Below are positions 36,773 to 51,369 of a DNA stretch of 51,369 nt, in pieces. The stretch's first letter is position 1. Each line of letters opens with the position of its first letter. This DNA comes from Ilumatobacteraceae bacterium. Its GTDB lineage: Bacteria; Actinomycetota; Acidimicrobiia; Acidimicrobiales; Ilumatobacteraceae. The stretch covers positions 1 to 51,369 of the forward strand of contig JANMQX010000093.1 of the NCBI GenBank assembly GCA_031370745.1, given 5' to 3'. The notes under the pieces were generated by a model. That model ran no database searches. It was not told where the DNA came from and was given only the letters and a program-made list of their open reading frames with translations. Position numbers and translations under genes: made by a program.

Positions 36773-37801
36773 ATGCTGAGAGCTGCCCTGCGCGACCTCC
36801 AATGGCGTTGGAAACGATTCGTCATCGCGATGGTCGGCGTCGCCCTGGTGTTCGCGATGGGTCTGATCATGACCGGTCTGTCGACGTCGTTCTCGACCGA
36901 AGTCGATCGGACGCTTGCCTCCATCGGCGCCGAGCGGTGGGCGGTTGCGTCGGATGCCTCCGGGCCGTTCAACTCCTTCAGCCCGATTCCGACCGCCGAG
37001 GCAGCAAACATCGGCGGATCGTCGGTCATGGTGCTCCGCGAGACGATTCAGGACGGGCCGACGGTTCGCGACATCATCGTGATGGGAGTGGAGCCGGGTG
37101 CTCTCGGCTCTCCGCACGCGTCGCGCGGTCAAGACCTGACCAGCTCCGGCCAAGTCGTGGTCGATCGCAGCCTTCCCGGTGCTTCGATCGGCGACACGAT
37201 CTCCTTCGGTGGTCAACACTTCGGGATCGTCGGGACGATTTCTGGGCAGAGTCTGTTTGCCGGCATCCCGCTGGTGTACATCCCGCTGGTGGACGTCCAA
37301 ACCATGGCCGTGGCGGGCCAGCCGCTTGCCACAGCGATGTTGTTTGCAAAGATCCCCACGTTCGTACCTGCTGAGTTGAAGGTGATGTCGAACCAGGATG
37401 TCAAAGACGACGTGTTGCGGCCGTTGAAGGCCGCTCGATCGTCGATCAGCTTCGTACGTCTGCTTTTGTGGCTGGTCGCGGCGATCGTCGTCGGATCCGT
37501 GCTGTACCTTCAGGCGCTCGAACGCAGTCGTGACTTCGCGGTCTTCAAGGCAACAGGTACATCGACAGCGGCGATCGGAGTCGGTCTTGCCGTACAGGCC
37601 GTGATGCTGTCGTTGGCCGCAGCAGTTTTGGCTGCAATACTCGCCACGGTTCTGGCACCGCTGTTCCCACTCAACGTCGAGATTCCGGCGAGTGGCTATC
37701 TGTTGTTGCCCGTGGTCACCGTCGTTGTCGGCCTCCTCGCCTGCTCGATTGCGCTTCGACGCACGGCACGTATTGACCCGGCTACCGCGTTCGGGGGATG
37801 A
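36773..37801 (+). CDS. FtsX/MacB-type ABC transporter permease
   Basis: MLRAALRDLQWRWKRFVIAMVGVALVFAMGLIM (TM1), about 200-aa periplasmic loop, then three C-terminal TMs ending ...IALRRTARIDPATAFGG. Confidence 0.85.
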   Translation: MLRAALRDLQWRWKRFVIAMVGVALVFAMGLIMTGLSTSFSTEVDRTLASIGAERWAVASDASGPFNSFSPIPTAEAANIGGSSVMVLRETIQDGPTVRDIIVMGVEPGALGSPHASRGQDLTSSGQVVVDRSLPGASIGDTISFGGQHFGIVGTISGQSLFAGIPLVYIPLVDVQTMAVAGQPLATAMLFAKIPTFVPAELKVMSNQDVKDDVLRPLKAARSSISFVRLLLWLVAAIVVGSVLYLQALERSRDFAVFKATGTSTAAIGVGLAVQAVMLSLAAAVLAAILATVLAPLFPLNVEIPASGYLLLPVVTVVVGLLACSIALRRTARIDPATAFGG

Positions 37802-37802
37802 G

Positions 37803-38792
37803 ATGACAGGAGCGGCGGCCGGGCTCGTCATCGAAAATCTGACGGTCGAGTTCACGAAAGGTGACTACACGGTTCGGCCGCTCGACGATTTCAGTTGCAA
37901 CGTGCATGCGGGCTCGTTGGCCCTCCTCCTCGGTCCTTCCGGTTGTGGCAAGACCACGTTGTTGTCGTGCCTGGGCGGCATCTTGAAACCGACCGCCGGC
38001 AAGATCTCGTATGGCGGCACCGAGGTCACCGCACTCACCGGTAAGGCGCTCACCTCGTACCGACAACGCGGGGTCGGTGTCGTGTTTCAAGCCTTCAACC
38101 TGGTTCCCAGTCTGAGCGCTGTCGAGAACGTCTCGGTGCCGATGCGCTCGGCTGGCGTCGGCCGACGCGAGGCGCGTGACAAGGCGGTGGCCTTGCTCGA
38201 GAGCGTCGGGTTGGGAGATCGCCTGACCCATCGCCCCAACGGCCTCAGTGGGGGGCAGCAGCAACGTGTCGCGATCGCTCGCGCGCTGGCCCTCGATCCT
38301 TCGCTGCTGCTGGCAGATGAGCCCACGGCGCACTTGGACTACATCCAGGTCGAGGGGATTCTTCGGCTCATCCGTGGCCTCACCGACGGCGGTCGCGTTG
38401 TCGTCGTTGCCACTCACGACGAACGACTGCTCGCGCTTGCGGATCAGATCATCGAGATGCGCCCGAACTTTATGCCCGACGTGGAGAACTCCCGCACCAT
38501 CCATCTCGATGCCGGGAAGAACCTGTTCGAACAGGGTGATCAAAGCGATCTGATCTATGTGGTGGACACCGGTGAACTGGAGGTGTTGCGCGAATCGCCC
38601 GAGGGTGAGGTGCGGCTCAGCATCATCCAGCCTGGCGAATACGTCGGTGAAATGGGTCCGCTGTTCGGTCTCGATCGTTCGGCGACCGTCCGCGCCCGTT
38701 TGGACTCGACGCTGACCGGTTACAGCGTCAAGGCCTTCAGGAACCTTGTCGGCGACGACAAAATTCCGTCAATCATCCGAGGTCGTCGCTGA
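37803..38792 (+). CDS. ABC transporter ATP-binding protein fused to a C-terminal cyclic-nucleotide-binding domain
   Basis: Walker A GPSGCGKTTLL, signature LSGGQQQRVAIARAL, Walker B LLLADEPTAHLD. Then a CAP_ED-like domain (nt 38487-38789): LFEQGDQSDLIYVVDTGELEVL...GEYVGEMGPLFGLDRSATVRA. ATG 37803 is 2 nt after the permease stop. Confidence 0.9.
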   Translation: MTGAAAGLVIENLTVEFTKGDYTVRPLDDFSCNVHAGSLALLLGPSGCGKTTLLSCLGGILKPTAGKISYGGTEVTALTGKALTSYRQRGVGVVFQAFNLVPSLSAVENVSVPMRSAGVGRREARDKAVALLESVGLGDRLTHRPNGLSGGQQQRVAIARALALDPSLLLADEPTAHLDYIQVEGILRLIRGLTDGGRVVVVATHDERLLALADQIIEMRPNFMPDVENSRTIHLDAGKNLFEQGDQSDLIYVVDTGELEVLRESPEGEVRLSIIQPGEYVGEMGPLFGLDRSATVRARLDSTLTGYSVKAFRNLVGDDKIPSIIRGRR

Positions 38793-41883: not shown

Positions 41884-44349
41884 TCAGAGGTCACCGGAGC
41901 GTTGCAACGCAACAAGCGCTCCCCAGCCTGGCAGCAGTGGGATCCAGAACGTCGCCAGGCGAAACAGGATGACGGCGGCGACTGCGGTGCTGCTGGTCAT
42001 TCCCGCTGAGGTCAATCCCGCGATCAGCGTCGCTTCCACGGCTCCGATCCCACCGGGGGTGGGAGCGACCGACGACACCACTGAGCCAACGAGGTAGACG
42101 AGAGCGACCGACGTGAACGCCGGGCCCGCTCCGAACGCGGACACGGCAACTTCCAACGCGAGGATGTACCCCAACGTGATGGCCAGCGAGCCGCCGAACA
42201 GTTCGATCATCTTGCCAGGCTGGTGAGCGATCTCGCTGACGTTGGCCAGCGAGCGCTTCGTTGCCGGCCACACGCGAGTAGTGAGCAATGCGCGGCTCCA
42301 TGGGACAGCCACACCGGTCGCTGCAACCAGCGCTACACCGGCGGCGATCAATCCGATCGTGCCCCACGAGGGCAGGTCGAAGGTCTTCAGCCCTGAGGAG
42401 CCGGCGAGGGCGATGAACAGGCCCGTCAAGGTGAGATGAACGATCACGCCGGCGATCGTGTCGACGCCCACGGCTGCGACAGCCGTCGTCGTGTCGATGC
42501 CGCGCTTCTGGAGGAATCGGGCGGTCAATGCCAGCCCGCCGCCGGGCGCGGCGACACCCACGAACGAGGTCGCCATCTGCACGCCGATGTTCGGGCCCAG
42601 TGGGAGATGCTCGGGCAGAGAGCCGGCGAGGGCCACGGCAGCGCCAACGTAGGTGAGGGCCGACAGAGCGAGGGCTGCGGCCGCCCACGACCAGTTGGCC
42701 CGCTGAAGCTCGCCCCATAGCGAGCCGAGGCCGAGGAATTGGGGAATGAGCGCCCACGCCGCCAGCGCCACCACAGCGATTGAGACAACCGTGCCCGTCG
42801 TGATCCTCTCCAGTTCGGCGATCGGGACGTTCTCGGCACCTGTCACGCGTTGGACCTCGGTGCGAAGGTCGTCGAGACACCCGGCAGCCTTGACGGCGGC
42901 TCGTGTCCTGTGAGTCAGCGCAAGCGGCTGCAAGCGGGGTAGGGCTGCTGCGACCGCAGCGGTGCCGACGCCGGCAACAGCGGATTCCACAGCGCGTTGA
43001 ACGCCGAGCGGCGCGGCTGTTGCTGCGAGCACCTCGGCAACATCGGTCGAGAGGGCAGAGCCGACGACGCCCAAGGAGGCTGAGGCGAAGCCGACGAGCA
43101 CGACGGCGCCTTCGTCGTCGACCCACAGGGCGTCGGCGTTGAGGCGGCGATGCACGGTGTGGCTCTGTTGGAGGGCGTTCACAATCGCCCAGACCGATTC
43201 CAAGAGTTGAGGCGTACGACGCGACGGATCGAGCTCGCTCAACGACTGCCGTGCATGAGCGTCGAACGCCATCATCATCGCGTTCGGGGGGAACTCGGCG
43301 ACCACCGCTAGGCGGGCAGTGGGAACACCGTCGGAGTGGGCTTTCAACGCGCAGAGGGCCTCGTGTTCGACCGCCGAACGAAGCGATCGGAACAGTCTGT
43401 CCTGGCCGACATCGCGGAATCGCGCCGCTCGGTACGTCTGCAAGGGGAGCAGCGCCGTCCACAGATCGCGATTGATGACCTTCACGATCAGCTGCTGGCC
43501 ATCGTCCATGTACACCTTGAATCCCGCGAAGCCGTGAAACCCTCCGAATCGTTCGACCGAGCAGACCCTGTAGCCCAGACGCTCGAGGATCTCGCCCACC
43601 GCCACGGCGCGCGGGCTTGTGTTGGGGGCTCCGCAGATCAGCTGCACAAGCGATGACGCGGCCGCTGCCATCGCAATGGCGGTCACGATCGTGGGCGGGT
43701 CCGCGAGACTGACGCCGAGCCGCGCAATGATCCCTAGGACAAGGACGACGCGACCGACCCGTCGCCAGCGTTCGGGCCAACGACCTCGGTCGACGAACAT
43801 CCAAGCGGCGATCACTCCCACGTCCAAAGTCGTCGGGAACGCGGCACCAATGCCGTATCCACTGAGGCCGTTGGCGCCCAGGCCCGAACCGGGCTGGGCG
43901 CTGTGCCGTGATGGCAGCAGAGGCAGCGCCGAGGTGCCGACAAGCTTCGACATCGTGATCAGGCCAGCGATGCAGACGACTGCGGCGAGCACCATTCGGC
44001 CGACCCGGACGAAGTGGCGGAGGACGAGTTGGCCGATGAACCCGAGAATCGCCGCAACGAGAAAGCCGAGTTGACAGATGCTGACGATGCCCGAAACAAG
44101 CCACCGCGGAGCTGAGCCGAGGAAGTCGCCGAAGTTGGTCGAAAACTGACTGACGTGGGCGCTTCGCAGCACAGCGTACGTGAAGCCGAGGACCACAAGC
44201 GACGCGACAAGTCTGATCGCGGTGACCGATGACCTCACATACGCCGGCTCAGCGGGCTCAGTCACCAAGAACGCTGGTCGCGCGGATGAGATGTCAAGCA
44301 TGGCGGATGAATTCTCGAGAAGGGATGCCTGATCGTAATCCGCGCCCAC
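41884..44349 (-). CDS. Polytopic membrane protein: N-terminal TMs, kinase-like (pseudokinase) module, C-terminal flippase-like (UPF0104/LPG_synthase_TM-type) domain
   Basis: 821 aa. Kinase-like aa ~255-430 (nt 43060-43587) has LIVKVINRD, EHEALCAL, HRRLNADAL (no catalytic Asp) and VGFASA in place of DFG. C-terminal ~300 aa are Gly/Ala-rich TMs ending ...PTPGGIGAVEATLIAGL...ILFRLATFWIPLLPGW, typical of the flippase-like family. Confidence 0.8.
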   Translation of the reverse strand: MGADYDQASLLENSSAMLDISSARPAFLVTEPAEPAYVRSSVTAIRLVASLVVLGFTYAVLRSAHVSQFSTNFGDFLGSAPRWLVSGIVSICQLGFLVAAILGFIGQLVLRHFVRVGRMVLAAVVCIAGLITMSKLVGTSALPLLPSRHSAQPGSGLGANGLSGYGIGAAFPTTLDVGVIAAWMFVDRGRWPERWRRVGRVVLVLGIIARLGVSLADPPTIVTAIAMAAAASSLVQLICGAPNTSPRAVAVGEILERLGYRVCSVERFGGFHGFAGFKVYMDDGQQLIVKVINRDLWTALLPLQTYRAARFRDVGQDRLFRSLRSAVEHEALCALKAHSDGVPTARLAVVAEFPPNAMMMAFDAHARQSLSELDPSRRTPQLLESVWAIVNALQQSHTVHRRLNADALWVDDEGAVVLVGFASASLGVVGSALSTDVAEVLAATAAPLGVQRAVESAVAGVGTAAVAAALPRLQPLALTHRTRAAVKAAGCLDDLRTEVQRVTGAENVPIAELERITTGTVVSIAVVALAAWALIPQFLGLGSLWGELQRANWSWAAAALALSALTYVGAAVALAGSLPEHLPLGPNIGVQMATSFVGVAAPGGGLALTARFLQKRGIDTTTAVAAVGVDTIAGVIVHLTLTGLFIALAGSSGLKTFDLPSWGTIGLIAAGVALVAATGVAVPWSRALLTTRVWPATKRSLANVSEIAHQPGKMIELFGGSLAITLGYILALEVAVSAFGAGPAFTSVALVYLVGSVVSSVAPTPGGIGAVEATLIAGLTSAGMTSSTAVAAVILFRLATFWIPLLPGWGALVALQRSGDL

Positions 44350-44530
44350 CGCGGCGCCCGGAGATTGGCGATACGACTGTGATCGACCTATTCGTCGCCA
44401 TCACGACCGCGCCGCCCTGCATAGACGAAGCGTCGCTTCGGTGGGCGGGTCGTTGGTCTGCCTCAGGTTCATGCCCACTTGGTCGAAGAATTCCTTGAGA
44501 CTGGCGTGACGACCACGATGAGAGGGTGGA

Positions 44531-47452
44531 ATGAGCAGGCTTCGGCACGGTGGGTCAGGAGATGAGGTCGCGTCCGCATCGGTGGCGAGGACGGACCTGT
44601 CTCCCATCGGTCTGGTCGGCCTGCCCTTGTCCGGACAGATCACGTCGTGGAATCGAGCGCCGACGCGGCGCCGACGAGCGAGCGGCATCGGGGCGGTCGA
44701 ATGTTTGTCGGTCGACGGACACCAGATCGGTTCTCGTCATCCACGGCTGACCAGTCTGCTGATCGATGCAGCCGATCGCCGTGAGATCACTGTGACGTTC
44801 CAGCCGGTCGTCGAGCTGACCACCGGTCGGATCATCGAGTTCGAAGCCCTCGCTCGTTGGAACTCGAGCGAGATCAGCGATGCCGATCCGACAACGTTCA
44901 TCGAGGCCGCGGAGGATGCCGGCCTCATCCACGAACTCGGACACATCGTGCTCGGGCGAAGCCTCGACATCGTGCTGACCGAACGCCTGGCCGGGCGGTG
45001 GGGCGACGGGCGAGTGTCGGTCAAGCTCTCCGCAGTGCAGTTGACGCATCCAGACCTGCCGAGCCGCGTCCTCGAAGCGCTCTGCACGCGTTCGCTCCCA
45101 GGCAATGTGCTGCAGCTGGAGCTGACAGAGACACGTCTGCTCCCGGGCATAGCGTCTGCGGCCGCACGTCTGGCCGGACTTCGGACACAGGGAGTTCGCA
45201 TCGCCATCGACGACTTCGGAACCGGCTGCGCCAACATGTCGTACCTCTGCGACCTGCCCGTCGATGCGATCAAGGTCGACGGGCGGTTCATCGCAGAAAT
45301 GTGCACCTCCCGCGCCGACGCAGCCGTGATCCGCTCGATCGTTTCACTGGCCAGTGAGCTGCACCTCGACGTGATCGCTGAGGGCGTCGAGACCGCGGAG
45401 CAGCACCTGGCTCTGATTCGCCTGGGGTGCGTTGCAGCGCAGGGACTCCTGTACTCGGGGTATCGGGAGTCGTCTGATCTCTACCAGACCGTCGTCCTCC
45501 CTCATCGGCCGCCGACTGCCGGGGTGCCGTATCCGGCCGACGAAGCCACGAGAGTCGCCGCGCTGCACAGCGCCGACGTTCTCGACACGCCGGCGGAGGA
45601 GGTGTACGACTCGATCGTTCGGGCAGCGGCCGATCTCTGCGGTACGCCGATCTCGCTCATCAGCCTGATCGACGAGGACAGGCAGTGGTTCAAAGCCAAG
45701 GTCGGCCTCGAAGCCGAGCAGACCTCTCGAGATGTGGCGTTCTGCGCGCATGCGATCTGTTCCGACGAGCTCATGGAGGTCGGTGACGCGCAGGAGGACG
45801 ATCGGTTTTCCTCGAATCCATTGGTGGTCGACGATCCCAAGGTGCGGTTCTATGCGGGAGCCCCGCTTCGCGCTGCTGCCGGCTACAGCTATGGCACGCT
45901 CTGTGTGATCGACACGGTCCCTCGGTTGCTCACCTCACAGCAACGCGATGGCTTGTCTCGGTTGGCTCGCCAAGCGACAGTGCTACTCGAGCTTCGTCAG
46001 TCGATGAATGAACTGAGTCACGCGTACAGTGAGCTCGAGTTCGCCCATCGCCAGCGAGATGCCATTGAGGCAAAGTTGCGACGCCAGGCGCACTACGACG
46101 CGTTGACCGATCTCCCCAACCGGGCCCTGTTGATGGAACGGATCGAGGCAGCGCTGAGCGACAGCGCGGAGACCGGACGGCCTCTGGCCATGCTGATCTG
46201 CGACCTGGACGACTTCAAGCTCGTCAACGACGGGCTCGGCCACCCGGCCGGCGACCAACTCCTGGTGGAGGTCGCCCGTCGTCTTCGCAGCTGCGTCCGC
46301 GAAACCGACACAGTCGCACGATTCGGTGGAGACGAGTTCGTCGTTCTTGTCAACAATGCCGACCAACACACCATCGTCATGCTCGCCAACCGCATCCTCG
46401 ACCAGATGGCTGCCCCGATCTCGATCGGCGGTCGAGACGACATCAGATCATCCATCTCGATCGGTGTCGCCAGCCAGACGCCTGGAGTCGGCGGCGACGA
46501 CCTGCTCAGCAACGCCGATACCGCCATGTACCAGGCCAAGGCATTGGGCGGAGGACGGATGTGCCAGTACGACGCAACGTTGCGGGCCGACGTCTTCGAC
46601 CGGTTGACCATCGCTGCGGAACTGCGAGCCGCCGTGGTGAAAAATGAACTCTTCTGCCTCCACCAGCCCGAGATCGACCTGCTGACGGGTGAACTTTTCG
46701 GCTTGGAGTCATTGGCCCGATGGGACCACCCATCTCGAGGGATCATGCTGCCCGATCACTTCGTACCGATCCTCGAGTCGGCCAACGGAATCGGCGCGCT
46801 GTTCGAGCGGGTGCTGCAGCTCACGCTGGCGGCGCAATCCCGATGGGCCGCCGAGTTGGGCTGCTGGCCATCGGTTGCAATCAACCTGTCGGCCCGACAA
46901 CTCGACGACTCGAACCTGGCGAACACGGTTCGTGACGCACTGGCCCAGTTCTCGGCGCCGGCGGATTCGCTGTGGCTGGAGGTGACCGAGAGCGCCCTGA
47001 CTTCGACCTCATCGTTCGACACGCTCAACGAGATCCACCGGATTGGCGTCCACCTCGCCATCGACGACTTCGGAGTCGGATGGTCATCGATCGCGCGTCT
47101 GTCGTTGTTTCCCTGGGACCTGCTGAAGATCGATCGCAGCTTCATTGCACCGCTCGGCCAGGCCGACAATGCTCAGCACGTCGTCCAGGGGATCATTTCG
47201 CTGGCGCATTCACTCGGTATGCGTACGGTGGCAGAGGGGGTCGAGACCGTCGAGCAACTACGTCGTCTTCGCGACCTCGGATGTGACATCGTCCAGGGCT
47301 ACTTCATCGACTGGCCGTTGCATGCGACCGACGTGTTGCCACGGATGAGGCTGCTCAAACGAGGCGACCGGTCAACCGACGCGATCGGCTGGGACGCGTC
47401 GGCGATGTCCGCGATTCAAGGAGCCCGCAAAACATCCAATAACGCTTCTTGA
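44531..47452 (+). CDS. EAL-GAF-GGDEF-EAL multidomain c-di-GMP turnover protein
   Basis: EAL1: EFEALARW, ELTE, DDFGTGCANMSYL, KVDGRF, EGVETAEQ. GAF: DSIVRAAADLCGTPISLISLIDEDRQWFKAKVG...FYAGAPL. GGDEF: RETD-TVARF-GGDEF. EAL2: LESLARW, INLSARQL, LEVTES, DDFGVGWSSI, KIDRSF, EGVET, QGYF. Start uncertain: ATG 44531 or TTG 44705. Confidence 0.9.
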   Translation: MSRLRHGGSGDEVASASVARTDLSPIGLVGLPLSGQITSWNRAPTRRRRASGIGAVECLSVDGHQIGSRHPRLTSLLIDAADRREITVTFQPVVELTTGRIIEFEALARWNSSEISDADPTTFIEAAEDAGLIHELGHIVLGRSLDIVLTERLAGRWGDGRVSVKLSAVQLTHPDLPSRVLEALCTRSLPGNVLQLELTETRLLPGIASAAARLAGLRTQGVRIAIDDFGTGCANMSYLCDLPVDAIKVDGRFIAEMCTSRADAAVIRSIVSLASELHLDVIAEGVETAEQHLALIRLGCVAAQGLLYSGYRESSDLYQTVVLPHRPPTAGVPYPADEATRVAALHSADVLDTPAEEVYDSIVRAAADLCGTPISLISLIDEDRQWFKAKVGLEAEQTSRDVAFCAHAICSDELMEVGDAQEDDRFSSNPLVVDDPKVRFYAGAPLRAAAGYSYGTLCVIDTVPRLLTSQQRDGLSRLARQATVLLELRQSMNELSHAYSELEFAHRQRDAIEAKLRRQAHYDALTDLPNRALLMERIEAALSDSAETGRPLAMLICDLDDFKLVNDGLGHPAGDQLLVEVARRLRSCVRETDTVARFGGDEFVVLVNNADQHTIVMLANRILDQMAAPISIGGRDDIRSSISIGVASQTPGVGGDDLLSNADTAMYQAKALGGGRMCQYDATLRADVFDRLTIAAELRAAVVKNELFCLHQPEIDLLTGELFGLESLARWDHPSRGIMLPDHFVPILESANGIGALFERVLQLTLAAQSRWAAELGCWPSVAINLSARQLDDSNLANTVRDALAQFSAPADSLWLEVTESALTSTSSFDTLNEIHRIGVHLAIDDFGVGWSSIARLSLFPWDLLKIDRSFIAPLGQADNAQHVVQGIISLAHSLGMRTVAEGVETVEQLRRLRDLGCDIVQGYFIDWPLHATDVLPRMRLLKRGDRSTDAIGWDASAMSAIQGARKTSNNAS

Positions 47453-49320
47453 GAGTGAACGCCGACCAGCCGATACACGTGCGCGAGATGGTTTCGTACC
47501 GTCGAGCGACTGATGTAGAGCGCGGCAGAGATCGAGGCCACGCGTTGACCCCGAAGAAGTCGTTCCACGATGTCACGCTGCCGTGCCGTGAGGTCGAGCC
47601 CATCGAACGTTGTGCTAAGGCTGCGATCGGGCCTGGATGCGACCGTCATCTCGACGTCCGCGGCATCGACTTCGGATCCGATGCGCCTGATGTGGCGTTC
47701 GAGTTTGGCGATCTTGTCGACCATCGACCGCGTGCCGATACTCGCTGACAACACGAAGGCAAAAGTGTTGCGCTCGACGACGGGAGACTCGGTGCTCGAA
47801 GGTCCGACAGGCCGCCGTTTGATCGTGAACAGTTGACATTGGCACAGCACCCAGCCCAGCTCGGAATGGGGGAGTCGAACCGCGCCGGCCGCGCTGCCGT
47901 TGCGCCTGAGCGATTCCAGCATCGCGTCGACGATGTCGACGTCGTCAGGGTGACCTGCCAGCCTGAGGGAAACGCTGAGCGCACCGCTCAGTTCGGTCTC
48001 CATGGACGAGATGGCAGTGGAGACACTCGTGACCGCACCGTTCAGATCGATCGCTCCTGCGACGAGAGCCGTTGCGAACGGATCGTCGGACCCTCGCCCT
48101 GCCGTGGCTTCGATGTCGGCGGGGACCGTCAGGACGACCGCCAACGCACCGGACGAGACGAGCAGCCGACGTACGGAGGTCAGCACCGCAAGGGGTCCAT
48201 CTGCAGTCATCAGGGTTCGTTGAGCGCGGTACGAATCGGTCGCACCCGAACACAACGCCATCAGGGCCTTGTCGGTCTTGCGCAGATCGATGGGATCGGA
48301 AAGGGCTCGAGCGTGCAGCGGGCCCGGCTCCAGCGTCGCCAGTCCGAACAACGCTCGTGCGGCCTCGTTCGCAGATTGGAGATCTCCGTCCGGAAGGCTG
48401 TACACCACGAGCGGCGGGTGCAGCGCTTCGTTCTCGGCTGTCGCATCTTTGTCGGACGTGGTGCCGCAGGAAAGCGTCTGGCACCCCTCCTGAGACAGCG
48501 GCGCTGGTTCCCCGCCGAAGTCATACAACAATGAGTCGAGCGTTGAGAATTGATCACTCGAGACCACATCGACATCAATATTCGAACGAATTTCGGAGGG
48601 TCCCACGAGATACGTCGCCTCCAAGGCTTCCGAAATCTGCCCGCGCAGGAACTCACCACCCTGAGCGTCGGCGACTCCGGCGAACAGCATCAACTGATTC
48701 GTCGACGGACGGATTATCACATCGTCGGCGCGAGTGAGGCGGAGCACTCGGGCAACCGCGTGCACAACGAGGTCATCGCGGGTTCGGCGCCCATGACGCG
48801 ACTCGATCTCGGCCAGATCGGACAAGGTGATCGTCACGACAGCCAATGAACCGTTGTGAGACTGGGCGTCAGCAAGCATGCGCGCCAAACCCGGCACGGC
48901 CGCCGGTGTGGTCGCCAACAAGGTCACGGGGTCGTTCCCGTGGTCGAGTGCGCGCACGCGTCCAATGGCAAGTCGTGCGGTGATGTTCGTGTGCGTCAGC
49001 ACTGCTCCCGACATGAGCTCACCGAGCGACGTCGCCTCCAACGCAAACCACTCGTCTTCCGTCGACGAATGACACGGGTACTCGAACTCGAACCGCGGTC
49101 GATCACCAAGCAGGACGTCACGAATTCCCGCAGCAACGACGGCGGCGTCACAACGCTCGCAGACATCCAGGTAGTTGACTCCGCAGCCGACCGCCGAGTC
49201 GGCACACTCACGAGCACTGGCCGCTGCTCGCCATGCCGCATTGGTGAGGATGATCGTCCCGTCACGATCGACCACCACGATCATGTCGAGACTCTGATCG
49301 AGAACAGCCACCGCAGCCAT
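47416..49320 (-). CDS. PAS / degenerate-GGDEF / PAS-PAS / LuxR-HTH transcriptional regulator
   Basis: N-terminal PAS (IVVVDRDGTIILTNAAW...GVNYLDVCE...EWFALEAT), GGDEF-fold with STNQL in place of GGDEF, C-terminal LTARQRDIVERLLRGQRVASISAALYISRSTVRNHLAHVYRLVGV. Overlaps the upstream gene's 3' end by 37 nt, convergent. Confidence 0.85.
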   Translation of the reverse strand: MAAVAVLDQSLDMIVVVDRDGTIILTNAAWRAAASARECADSAVGCGVNYLDVCERCDAAVVAAGIRDVLLGDRPRFEFEYPCHSSTEDEWFALEATSLGELMSGAVLTHTNITARLAIGRVRALDHGNDPVTLLATTPAAVPGLARMLADAQSHNGSLAVVTITLSDLAEIESRHGRRTRDDLVVHAVARVLRLTRADDVIIRPSTNQLMLFAGVADAQGGEFLRGQISEALEATYLVGPSEIRSNIDVDVVSSDQFSTLDSLLYDFGGEPAPLSQEGCQTLSCGTTSDKDATAENEALHPPLVVYSLPDGDLQSANEAARALFGLATLEPGPLHARALSDPIDLRKTDKALMALCSGATDSYRAQRTLMTADGPLAVLTSVRRLLVSSGALAVVLTVPADIEATAGRGSDDPFATALVAGAIDLNGAVTSVSTAISSMETELSGALSVSLRLAGHPDDVDIVDAMLESLRRNGSAAGAVRLPHSELGWVLCQCQLFTIKRRPVGPSSTESPVVERNTFAFVLSASIGTRSMVDKIAKLERHIRRIGSEVDAADVEMTVASRPDRSLSTTFDGLDLTARQRDIVERLLRGQRVASISAALYISRSTVRNHLAHVYRLVGVHSQEALLDVLRAP

Positions 49321-49508
49321 GCGAGCGTCGCCCTGATCAGTAACGGCACCCGCGAGCTCAACGATCCATTAACCCTATCCAGGCGACTGAGCATCCCCCC
49401 GTTGGCCGACAGCTCGTAGTGGACCAGTCGATGTCCTTCACCGGCTCGTTCGGCGCCGGATCGCATCTCCGACCACCAACGAATCGCCGAACATCGTGCC
49501 GGGACGCG

Positions 49509-50474
49509 TCACTTGATGAGGCCGATGACCTCGCGGACTGCGTTCGCGACGAGTTCGGTATCGGCTTCGTCCATCCAGTGGGGCGCATTGACGACTCGCC
49601 ATGTTCCTGGCGACCAACTCTCGACCCAAGCTTTGCGCGTCGCGTCGTCGGCCTCCAGGCCGCGATCCGAGGCGTCCTTCGCCGCGAGGTATAGCAAGGG
49701 AACGGCGGGCTCTCGATCGCGGCGATCATGGATCCATTCTGCGAGACGACAGTTGTCCAGCTTTTCCAGGGAGTCAAACGCGTCGGCCTGGCGATTGGCC
49801 TCGAGGCAGGGCCCCTGAAAGTTCTCCCGCTTGTCGATGTCGTAGTCCACGCCGGTCGAGGAGTCGAGCAGCACGACGCCGACGACCCTCTCCGGGTGCG
49901 CCACCGCGTAAGCCGAGGCGACCAGTCCGCCGAATGACGCTCCGAGTAGCAAGAATGGACCGTGCTCGTCGAGCGCGGCGAGCAGGCCGTCGACATCGGC
50001 CATTACGTCCTCAGGGCTTTGTGTGCCATCGACTGTCTCGCTGCGACCGGTGTTGCGCCGTTCGTAGGAGCACACTCGAAACCCGGGCCCGAGGGCGTTC
50101 TCGATGCCGGGCGCGATCGCGACACCGCGCTTCGCTCGATCAGGTGCCCAGCCTGTGAAGTACACGATGGTGGGGGAACCCTCGCCGGCGCAGCGGGCAT
50201 TAATGCCGTGGCCGCGCACATCGACCAGACCTTCAACGGTGCCACCTGGTTTGACGGGTAGGGAGATCAACGGCTCCTTCGACGACACGGAGGCTGTCTC
50301 CGAGGACGGCGCCGTCGCATCCGTGGGATTTGTGGTCGCCGCCGTCGTCGTTACGAGGGACACCGTAGGGGTCGTTGCCTCGACGGCTTTCGACGGCGGG
50401 TCGGAGTCGCCGCCGCAGCCCGCCGTGACCAGCAGGCCAACCAACGCTGCGCCCATCATGATCCGGTTCCTCAT
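49509..50474 (-). CDS. Alpha/beta-hydrolase lipoprotein
   Basis: MRNRIMMGAALVGLLVTAGCGG (lipobox LVTAGC), Thr/Ser/Ala-rich linker, nucleophile elbow LLLGASFGGLV. The upstream 275 codons of the 596-aa track ORF are Arg/Pro-rich and antisense to the ArsR gene. Confidence 0.85.
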   Translation of the reverse strand: MRNRIMMGAALVGLLVTAGCGGDSDPPSKAVEATTPTVSLVTTTAATTNPTDATAPSSETASVSSKEPLISLPVKPGGTVEGLVDVRGHGINARCAGEGSPTIVYFTGWAPDRAKRGVAIAPGIENALGPGFRVCSYERRNTGRSETVDGTQSPEDVMADVDGLLAALDEHGPFLLLGASFGGLVASAYAVAHPERVVGVVLLDSSTGVDYDIDKRENFQGPCLEANRQADAFDSLEKLDNCRLAEWIHDRRDREPAVPLLYLAAKDASDRGLEADDATRKAWVESWSPGTWRVVNAPHWMDEADTELVANAVREVIGLIK

Positions 50475-50629
50475 CGCCCCCCGATCTGCCGGCAGGAACC
50501 TTAGTGCCCGCTCCGACACGGCCAGCGGCTTGTCGTGGCAGAGAAATCGGCGCCATTCCCGGCACTTCAGCGCAGTCCGCACAGCAACGGAACGGAACCA
50601 CCTCTCGGTCAGCGGCCTCCTCCCCGGGC

Positions 50630-50657
50630 TTGACGTATGCCGATATCGGAATATGAT
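50630..50657 (+). promoter_or_regulatory. Candidate promoter (TTGACG-16-TATGAT) with embedded 10-bp palindrome, driving a leaderless arsR-family mRNA
   Basis: TTGACG 50630-50635 and TATGAT 50652-50657. The perfect palindrome CCGATATCGG 50640-50649 lies in the spacer. ATG 50664 begins 7 nt after the -10 hexamer. Confidence 0.5.
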
Positions 50658-50663
50658 TGCGAC

Positions 50664-51005
50664 ATGGCACGAGCAGCGACGACGTCGGACGTCTTCAACG
50701 CGATCGCCGAGCAGCAACGCCGGGAGATCCTGGTGCTGCTGCGGGCGGGCGAGGGGCCGGTGACCGAGTTGGCCCAGGAGCTGGGAATGACCCAGACGGG
50801 GGCGTCCAAACACCTGCGGGTGCTCCGCGAGGTCGGACTGGTGCGGGACCGCAGGGCAGGCAAGCAACGCCTGTACGGCCTTGACGCCCGCGGGCTGCGA
50901 CCGGTTCACGAGTGGACCAGCGGCTTTGAGTGGTTCTGGAACGAGAGCTTCGACAGGCTGGACGAGTACGTACAGGACCTCAAGCAGGCAAGGCAGGAGG
51001 AGTAG
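50664..51005 (+). CDS. ArsR/SmtB-family transcriptional regulator
   Basis: MARAATTSDVFNAIAEQQRREILVLLRAGEGPVTELAQELGMTQTGASKHLRVLREVGLVRDRRAGKQRLYGL (winged HTH). The track ATG 50637 lies inside the predicted promoter. Confidence 0.88.
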   Translation: MARAATTSDVFNAIAEQQRREILVLLRAGEGPVTELAQELGMTQTGASKHLRVLREVGLVRDRRAGKQRLYGLDARGLRPVHEWTSGFEWFWNESFDRLDEYVQDLKQARQEE

Positions 51006-51008
51006 CTG

Positions 51009-51369
51009 ATGAGCGCGACGGGACCAGGAGCGCAGGCGCAGTCCGCGACGGCTGACCGCGAGATCGTGATCTCCCGGGTCATCAGTGCTGCTCGAGCGCT
51101 GGTGTTCGAGGCGTTCACCGAGGTGCGGCACCTGTCGCGTTGGTGGGGACCGGAGGGCTTCACCACCACCACGCGGGCGTTCGAGTTCCGCGTCGGCGGG
51201 GAGTGGGACTTCGTGATGCACGGACCCGACGGGACGGACTACCAGGAGTGGATCTCCTGGACCGAGATCGCCCCGCCGGAGCGGATCGCGCTGGTGCACG
51301 GTGAGTCCCGCGGCGACCCGAACGCCTTCGAGTCGGTTTTGACGTTCGCGCCCGACGGCGCGGCGACCC
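51009..51369 (+). CDS. SRPBCC/AHSA1-like protein (5' part; runs off the window)
   Basis: Not in the track because it has no stop. Own translation from ATG 51009: MSATGPGAQAQSATADREIVISRVISAARALVFEAFTEVRHLSRWWGPEGFTTTTRAFEFRVGGEWDFVMHGPDGTDYQEWISWTEIAPPERI. This is the usual partner of ArsR regulators. Confidence 0.85.
   Translation, partial: MSATGPGAQAQSATADREIVISRVISAARALVFEAFTEVRHLSRWWGPEGFTTTTRAFEFRVGGEWDFVMHGPDGTDYQEWISWTEIAPPERIALVHGESRGDPNAFESVLTFAPDGAAT

Follow-up and report, generated by a model that had tools for sequence, protein, structure and literature searches.

A LuxR-type regulator of Ilumatobacteraceae with a catalytically dead GGDEF domain: a candidate c-di-GMP-responsive transcription factor

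The window analysed here, i.e. the whole stretch of 51,369 nucleotides (nt) from an Ilumatobacteraceae bacterium (assembly GCA_031370745.1, contig JANMQX010000093.1, positions 1 to 51,369 of the forward strand), encodes a 634-amino acid (aa) protein in which a GGDEF-fold domain devoid of its catalytic residues is joined to a LuxR-type helix-turn-helix (HTH). The gene lies tail-to-tail with that of an intact GGDEF-EAL enzyme, and a similar gene pair recurs at most loci of the family. We tentatively favour the reading that the protein is a one-component regulator whose dead GGDEF domain survives as a sensor, binding cyclic di-GMP (c-di-GMP) at an inherited inhibitory site (I-site, RxxD) and coupled to the adjacent enzyme.

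Domain architecture of the regulator

The regulator gene, its domains and motifs, and the convergent partner gene are located as follows; model confidence is given as the predicted local distance difference test (pLDDT) of the AlphaFold2 (AF2) model.

47416..49320, (-): regulator gene; 634-aa PAS_4 / degenerate GGDEF / PAS / PAS / LuxR-HTH one-component regulator (open reading frame (ORF), Pfam, AF2, ~25 orthologs)
48976..49302 (aa 7-115), (-): N-terminal PAS_4 domain with a GVNYLDVCE motif (Pfam 31.2 bits, cutoff 23.1 bits; pLDDT 80-93)
48523..48939 (aa 128-266), (-): GGDEF-fold domain, degenerate and C-terminally truncated (Pfam, profile, AF2, Foldseek, alignment)
48775..48795 (aa 176-182), (-): HGRRTRD, Arg-rich loop of the former active site, in place of the canonical GHxxGD (translation checked)
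48721..48732 (aa 197-200), (-): RADD, the RxxD I-site motif (translation, alignment)
48691..48705 (aa 206-210), (-): STNQL at the position of the GG[DE]EF catalytic motif (translation, alignments)
48421..48522 (aa ~267-300 and beyond), (-): linker, acidic, predicted to be disordered and non-conserved (pLDDT 24-38; length varies among orthologs)
48121..48414 (aa ~303-400), (-): PAS-like module 2 (secondary structure of the model, with low pLDDT of 35-60; Pfam matches in relatives)
47740..48072 (aa ~417-527), (-): PAS module 3, PAS_3 type (PAS-like sheet and helices, pLDDT 63-88; PAS_3 in relatives)
47662..47733 (aa 530-553), (-): long helix between the last PAS and the HTH (DSSP), containing the conserved motif LERHIRRIGSEV
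47437..47592 (aa 577-628), (-): LuxR/GerE HTH (Pfam GerE 37.9 bits, cutoff 23.5 bits; pLDDT 83-92)
44531..47452, (+): partner gene; 973-aa EAL-GAF-GGDEF-EAL protein, convergent (Pfam)

The domain order read from the DNA in a first-pass annotation, namely a PAS, a GGDEF-fold segment, two PAS-like segments and a LuxR/GerE HTH, is confirmed by Pfam, the AF2 model, Foldseek and the relatives. In a profile search, the C-terminal four-helix HTH matches the solved GerE structure 1fse (E 4e-9) as well as NarL and ChrA. The two central modules gave no Pfam match in the window protein itself and are assigned as PAS domains on account of the secondary structure of the model, the Foldseek matches to the multi-PAS repressor PpsR (to which ~560 columns of the model align) and Pfam matches in relatives. 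At the place of module 2, the relative P0035 carries a PAS_4/PAS match above cutoff (aa 310-405) and P0007 a PAS_9 match (aa 322-396); at that of module 3, PAS_3 is found in P0035 (aa 450-529, 40.9 bits, above cutoff), P0052, P0066, P0032 and P0007. PAS/PAS_3 matches exceed the cutoff in both P0035 and P0052. The disordered linker connects the two halves of the regulator, and the helix at aa 530-553 is probably a dimerisation or signalling helix.

NCBIfam returns only sub-threshold matches to LuxR-type response regulators and to GGDEF, and no equivalog family. Neither Pfam nor NCBIfam finds a Response_reg domain, the motif W[FLM][TS]R does not occur in the 634-aa sequence, and Pfam detects no EAL domain in the window regulator. 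A cytoplasmic one-component transcription regulator is the best explanation of this layout. The idea that the regulator ORF had been mis-called was dropped, as ~25 orthologs share its domain structure.

A GGDEF fold that has lost catalysis

From the window protein alone, the GGDEF call is marginal, since the Pfam match (aa 130-223, 20.1 bits, E 5.7e-4) falls under the gathering cutoff of 23.8 bits and spans only profile positions 4-97 of 161, i.e. the first 60%. Taken together, though, four lines of evidence (orthologs, Pfam, profile and model) establish that aa ~128-266 has a GGDEF fold, of the nucleotidyl-cyclase type with a five-stranded sheet and helices. Pfam GGDEF is matched at E <= 0.01 by 23 of 24 orthologs, the best at 7.4e-9, and some of them pass the cutoff. 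A family profile aligns over 150 residues with the solved GGDEF domain 3icl (E 1.1e-7), bringing the RDGD and GGDKF of the latter opposite RADD and STNQL, and it also matches TpbB/YfiN and further cyclases. The AF2 model, built from the family alignment, has a pLDDT of 75-93 across aa 128-266, and Foldseek superimposes this part on the isolated GGDEF domains 4urg, 4urs, 4yme and 7a7e with template modelling (TM) scores of 0.69-0.79 and root-mean-square deviations of 2.1-2.8 Å. Its best match overall is the PAS-GGDEF-EAL protein RbdA, whose form bound to guanosine triphosphate (GTP), 5xgd, ranks second. Compared with a canonical GGDEF domain, the fold ends one helix and one strand early. The segment had initially been placed at aa ~130-233; the fold is indeed there, but the alignment carries it on to ~aa 266. 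Hidden Markov model searches and structure prediction, the check suggested at that stage, both returned a GGDEF-fold match, weakly in Pfam and clearly in AF2 and Foldseek.

To follow individual residues, the regulator family was compared in an alignment of 25 orthologs, 15 active paralogs and the GGDEF domain of the neighbouring enzyme, in which residue mapping is secure because there are almost no gaps. In the regulator GGDEF domain, the metal-binding Asp pair has become T and S. Across the family, FK is replaced by L plus a variable residue, the guanine-contacting ND by ES, GHxxGD by GRRxRD, and the GGDEF motif itself by [SA][TSM]N[QEVIRG]L. The domain terminates at a conserved SDQFSTLDSLL, and the ADxxMYxAK helix with its phosphate-binding Lys/Arg is missing. 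As judged from this alignment, diguanylate cyclase activity of the regulator is excluded: the metal-binding Asp residues, FK, ND and the GGDEF motif have been lost, and so has the C-terminal helix that binds phosphate. The dead active site recognised earlier from STNQL alone is therefore upheld by comparison with active cyclases.

The active paralogs share 34 near-invariant positions, of which the regulator family keeps about ten, and every catalytic position has been replaced. Those kept comprise two hydrophobic core residues, one Gly, D130 (19/25 orthologs), D182, R191, R204 and the three residues of the I-site. D182, the only one of the metal, guanine and phosphate contacts of an active cyclase that is left, corresponds to PleD D344, which contacts guanine, and R204 to PleD R366.

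The I-site and its retention

RADD (aa 197-200) and STNQL (aa 206-210) are separated by exactly five residues, VIIRP, which is the spacing of the intact RETD-TVARF-GGDEF in the neighbouring enzyme. The first-pass annotation had pointed to this spacing, and translation and alignment bear it out: RADD aligns with the RxxD of all 15 active paralogs. Within the orthologs, R197 is kept in 21/25, D200 in 25/25, and position 228, the third I-site residue, which is equivalent to PleD R390 and PelD R402, is Arg in 17/25 and Lys in a further 4/25. The chance that the whole trio would be found in the kept set is ~2% (120/5984 combinations), a rough and post-hoc figure that assumes random retention.

More distant relatives, ~30% identical to the regulator family, extend this comparison. 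The RxxD motif is kept in five of six outgroup sequences, in which the GGDEF position reads differently each time: RSSD with GRDEF in P0086, whose GGDEF domain is otherwise near-canonical (Pfam 101 bits), RSDD with GANVC in P0052, RAGD with GERVF in P0066, RSGD with GPGAF in P0035 and RTGD with RPAVL in P0037. The third Arg is kept in P0086, P0052 and P0066. An active-site motif that drifted while RxxD mostly stayed is the pattern of known degenerate-GGDEF receptors.

A second motif was also considered at this place, since RADD could be thought part of a BldD-type RXD-X8-RXXD arrangement. This candidate was rejected because R181-D-D183 lies 13 residues from R197, where the motif calls for 8.

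A conserved pairing with a c-di-GMP enzyme

The partner gene overlaps the 3′ end of the regulator gene by 37 nt, so that the convergent overlap with an EAL-GAF-GGDEF-EAL gene noted at the outset agrees with both ORF coordinates and Pfam. Its RETD I-site, GGDEF motif and both EAL signatures are intact. Comparison of 12 family loci, the window included, places a GAF-GGDEF-EAL gene directly next to the regulator gene in ten. The layout is tail-to-tail in seven (the window, L002, L004, L085, L086, L088 and L090), and tblastn identifies the partners in L002, L004, L085 and L086 as orthologs of 66-73% identity. In L001 and L005, a paralogous GAF-GGDEF-EAL gene lies downstream on the same strand, and in L003 a paralogous partner gene lies upstream in divergent orientation. 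That adjacency persists across orientations and partner paralogs (L001, L003, L005) argues for selection over frozen synteny.

The regulator of L003, P0021 (8001-10760), carries an additional N-terminal EAL domain (E 1.9e-67) with all catalytic motifs intact, fused to the PAS / dead-GGDEF / PAS / PAS / LuxR body of the family, in which the I-site Arg has been lost (SRDD). This coincidence of EAL gain and I-site Arg loss fits a view of the two as alternative c-di-GMP sensors, though it is a single case. Adjacency, the P0021 fusion and RxxD retention in the outgroups together strengthen the putative c-di-GMP link of the regulator.

Several side observations concern these loci. P0021 might represent a trigger variant within the family, akin to PdeL. 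At 973 aa, the partner enzyme of the window is missing ~200 N-terminal aa relative to its orthologs of 1167-1202 aa, which have an extra PAS-GGDEF module; the shortening is real and not a frameshift, since only ~180 bp separate the gene from the one upstream. A promoter and terminator scan of 47200-49600 returned no sites, which is uninformative for a high-GC actinobacterium.

A candidate c-di-GMP receptor wired to a LuxR-type HTH

On the reading that we tentatively favour, the dead GGDEF domain would bind c-di-GMP via R197-x-x-D200, together with R/K228 in most orthologs. If PleD, WspR and PelD are a guide, c-di-GMP might bind there as an intercalated dimer and lock the domain against a second domain or subunit, which would in turn alter how the PAS-PAS-helix-HTH half dimerises on DNA. 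The adjacent (EAL-)GAF-GGDEF-EAL enzyme could set the local c-di-GMP level, be the transcriptional target of the regulator, or both, and the three PAS domains would feed in further signals. We infer nucleotide binding, this allosteric route and the regulatory targets from the fold, the motifs and the gene pairing; a c-di-GMP receptor is plausible on that sequence-level basis.

A number of observations weigh against this reading. The I-site Arg, which is essential in the characterised receptors PelD, PopA and PleD, is replaced in four of the 25 orthologs (by Gly in P0006 and L004, by Ser in P0011 and P0021) and also in the outgroup P0039, which has SSRD together with NENQI, albeit with an Arg at the third position. 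The window regulator itself has Gln at position 228, where P0035 has Glu and P0037 Val. Ranked by entropy among the 139 columns of the domain, R197 comes 55th and position 228 only 88th. Since RxxD is present in all active ancestors, part of its retention may be inertia among close relatives. The I-site proposed in the first-pass annotation therefore survives in that RxxD sits at canonical spacing, but it is weaker than was thought, given the Arg losses, Q228 and mid-ranked conservation. Concerning genomic context, L084 and L089 have no c-di-GMP gene adjacent to the regulator. Upstream of the regulator (49300-49520) no inverted repeats and no operator were found, and the region upstream of the partner (44340-44560) contains one short imperfect palindrome (44483-44498), insufficient for a LuxR box.

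The two loci without a partner, L084 and L089, represent one subclade (P0018, P0019), the only one lacking an adjacent c-di-GMP enzyme gene. Their regulators adjoin riboflavin biosynthesis and flavin reductase genes in L084 and nadA/B/C genes in L089, which may hint at a signal related to flavin or nicotinamide adenine dinucleotide (NAD) for the PAS domains.

The most constrained face of the domain and what it may mean

The conservation pattern raises a further difficulty for an I-site receptor. Ten residues are invariant in 25/25 orthologs, namely H176, G177, R178, R179, R181, D182, R191, D200, R204 and N208, and HGRxxRD is also found in the outgroups P0035 and P0037. Three arginines stand in for the H, x and G of the canonical GHxxGD loop and adjoin D182 in the alignment. 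Mapped onto PleD, the invariant polar residues H176, R178, R179, R181, D182, R204 and N208 surround the former active site. Because the invariant residues fall on that face, the main constrained surface of the domain would seem to lie elsewhere than at the I-site, which again counts against c-di-GMP binding there. The Arg-rich face could serve as an interface, fill the vacated pocket from within, or be a new ligand site.

Were it an interface, the dead GGDEF domain might be a structural, dimerisation or docking module that functions without nucleotide, perhaps contacting the GGDEF domain of the partner enzyme. The enzyme would then control the regulator by contact, with the PAS domains and the GAF domain of the partner sensing the small-molecule signals. 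This is a possibility of some weight, if on the unlikely side. The invariant, Arg-rich surface separate from the I-site could be such an interface, an I-site Arg in only 21/25 orthologs and the missing third I-site residue of the window protein sit well with it, and adjacency to one orthologous enzyme suits a dedicated partner at least as well as a diffusible signal. Analogues exist in E. coli DgcM/PdeR, which act on MlrA, and in the docking of GcbC on LapD. Trigger enzymes and complexes of diguanylate cyclases with transcription factors are established (PMC12564702, section 5.2; also PMC3715855 and PMC12421958). A pure scaffold, in contrast, leaves unexplained why RxxD is retained across subfamilies and why the I-site trio is among the ancestral residues kept, and the EAL fusion of P0021 points to the nucleotide being relevant.

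Were it instead a ligand site, the remodelled active site might form a metal-independent pocket (HGRRxRD, R204, N208, D182) for a phosphorylated ligand such as GTP, pGpG, product-like c-di-GMP or another nucleotide, and would be the real sensor, with RxxD secondary or vestigial. We regard this as improbable. In its favour are the invariance of the residues concerned in 25/25 orthologs, the recurrence of HGRxxRD in P0035 and P0037, and the retention of D182, the counterpart of the guanine-contacting PleD D344, next to three arginines; a degenerate GGDEF domain also senses GTP in Caulobacter PdeA, and GTP-bound RbdA 5xgd is the second-ranked Foldseek match. Yet canonical GTP binding is impossible, for the domain has lost the guanine-binding Asn (PleD N335), both metal ligands, the FK that resembles a P-loop, and the K/R helix at the C-terminus. 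The arginines might just as well form an interface, or fill the vacant pocket with internal salt bridges. The fuller version, in which such a pocket would be wired to the LuxR HTH and dedicated to a single GGDEF-EAL partner, is if anything a little more doubtful. If true, it would amount to a previously unknown way of turning a GGDEF domain into a sensor, unlike that of I-site receptors.

Least probable of all is that the protein has no c-di-GMP link and is an ordinary PAS-LuxR regulator with a vestigial fusion leftover, its neighbour being there by synteny alone: the proteins are essentially restricted to a single bacterial family, so that recent common ancestry could account for synteny and motif retention, and two loci lack the partner, but the GGDEF-like domain ranks with the best-conserved parts of the protein and with those modelled at the highest confidence, and it bears a family-specific invariant signature, which places it under purifying selection, adjacency survives changes of orientation and paralogous partners (L001, L003, L005), and an EAL domain has been fused in P0021.

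Distribution and modular origin of the family

The regulator family is rare. It comprises ~30 sequence clusters, all from Ilumatobacteraceae/Acidimicrobiia metagenomes, and an exhaustive profile search of 1.84 billion representatives (50%-identity clusters) recovered the full architecture in a handful of such clusters (P0004, P0021, P0022, P0035, P0039), besides relatives that lack the first PAS (P0052, P0066, P0086). The ~25 full-length orthologs share 49-73% identity and all stem from metagenomes or metagenome-assembled genomes, the named ones being Ilumatobacter, Ilumatobacteraceae and Acidimicrobiales; in 185,579 species-representative genomes, there are two (L004, L005). A homolog search seeded by the outgroups P0052, P0066 and P0086 yielded one extra relative, P0179, and then ordinary GGDEF-EAL proteins.

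Each half of the regulator has relatives of its own. Its aa 16-265 are ~30% identical to PAS_4-GGDEF cyclases of Acidimicrobiia and other Actinomycetes with intact RxxD and GGDEF motifs, while aa 350-633 match the 360-aa PAS-LuxR protein P0032 (28% identity, E 2e-16), and dozens of ~350-aa proteins match profile positions 308-647 only. Judging by these matches, the regulator is a fusion of a PAS_4-GGDEF cyclase module, common in Acidimicrobiia and other Actinomycetes, with a stand-alone PAS-PAS-LuxR regulator, the disordered linker forming the joint. A split architecture is seen at L087 (2480-4688), where the first PAS is a separate 127-aa gene directly upstream of the GGDEF-like/PAS/PAS/LuxR gene (P0052).

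The PAS subfamily to which the N-terminal PAS_4 belongs (loci L019-L083) is sharply conserved, with the motif G[VAI]NY[LF][DE][VLI]C[ED] and conserved C83-H84, W91 and H110, and its members in Planctomycetes, Verrucomicrobia, Burkholderiales, Chloroflexi and haloarchaea show 40-48% identity. A sequence search of the PDB with this domain alone matched no solved structure. In view of the conserved Cys and His, the domain may have a role that involves a metal, haem or redox chemistry.

Relation to known systems

The closest parallels to the dead GGDEF domain are PelD, PopA, SgmT, Listeria PssE and Bacillus YdaK, all of which combine a GGDEF fold and a dead motif with an RxxD five residues upstream, which is their c-di-GMP binding site (for PopA and RxxD, see PMC12564702; for SgmT, PMC3509222). 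Their outputs are polysaccharide synthesis, protein localisation or degradation, and a histidine kinase, and none is fused to a DNA-binding domain. The regulator further differs from them in its C-terminal truncation, its invariant HGRRxRD loop and the absence of the I-site Arg in 16% of orthologs.

VpsT and CsgD share with the regulator a C-terminal LuxR/GerE HTH: the VpsT structure 3kln matches the regulator HTH (E 0.003), and several orthologs are labelled 'CsgD family' by the Joint Genome Institute. In VpsT, c-di-GMP is bound by the receiver (REC) domain by way of a W[F/L/M][T/S]R motif, whereas the regulator has neither a REC domain nor this motif. In E. coli PdeL (YahA), a LuxR HTH is combined with an EAL domain into a trigger phosphodiesterase in which the nucleotide tunes the transcription factor (PMC12564702, section 5.2). 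The likeness lies in the union of a LuxR-type HTH and a domain of the c-di-GMP turnover type in one polypeptide, and P0021 even has an intact EAL. PdeL, however, has an active EAL domain and an N-terminal HTH, as opposed to the dead GGDEF domain, three PAS domains, C-terminal HTH and missing EAL of the regulator.

Considering the two halves separately, stand-alone PAS-LuxR regulators of Actinomycetota (~350 aa; P0032, P0034) are homologous to aa ~305-634 from end to end but lack the PAS_4 and dead GGDEF module; PimM-type proteins are PAS-LuxR regulators of this kind of composition. PAS_4-GGDEF cyclases (L008, L010), on the other hand, resemble aa 16-265 at ~30% identity and align there without gaps, RxxD included, but they retain the GGDEF motif, the residues that bind metal and GTP, and the C-terminal helix, and they have no HTH.

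Transcription sensors of c-di-GMP with unrelated folds include VpsT, FleQ, BldD, Clp, MrkH and PdeL. Literature searches, whose coverage excluded most subscription journals, returned no characterised GGDEF-HTH or GGDEF-LuxR fusion, and recent reviews of c-di-GMP effectors (including PMC12564702) list no GGDEF-HTH receptor. As far as these searches reach, the suggestion that the architecture is uncharacterised stands; among the characterised cases found, none senses through a degenerate GGDEF domain that is directly joined to a DNA-binding one. Degenerate-GGDEF receptors and c-di-GMP-responsive regulators are each known, and what would be new is their combination in one protein. If binding is true, this would be the shortest possible route from an I-site to gene expression, with a feedback-inhibition site of an enzyme recycled through domain fusion as the ligand site of a transcription factor. 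It would also open a first way into the c-di-GMP signalling of Ilumatobacteraceae/Acidimicrobiia, Actinomycetota that abound in water and soil but have hardly any genetics, and the conserved two-gene module of regulator and bifunctional enzyme makes a compact system in which to study such signalling at a local scale. The reach of this is limited, since the family is rare, the organisms are largely uncultured and the concept joins two well-known ideas.

Other genes in the window

Elsewhere in the window, 37692-38792 (+) encodes an ABC-transporter ATPase with a C-terminal cNMP_binding domain, which would make it a component of a cyclic-nucleotide-gated transporter, and 41884-44349 (-) an 821-aa membrane protein whose C-terminal ~300 aa match LPG_synthase_TM and whose N-terminal ~500 aa are without a Pfam family. 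The 596-aa ORF at 49509-51299 (-) is over-extended: its C-terminal ~300 aa are a lipoprotein-type alpha/beta hydrolase with a start near MRNRIMMGAALVGLLVTAGC, and the spurious extension contains, on the opposite strand, an ArsR-family HTH gene (50637-51005, +). An ArsR/AHSA1 pair recurs near the regulator ortholog in L001.

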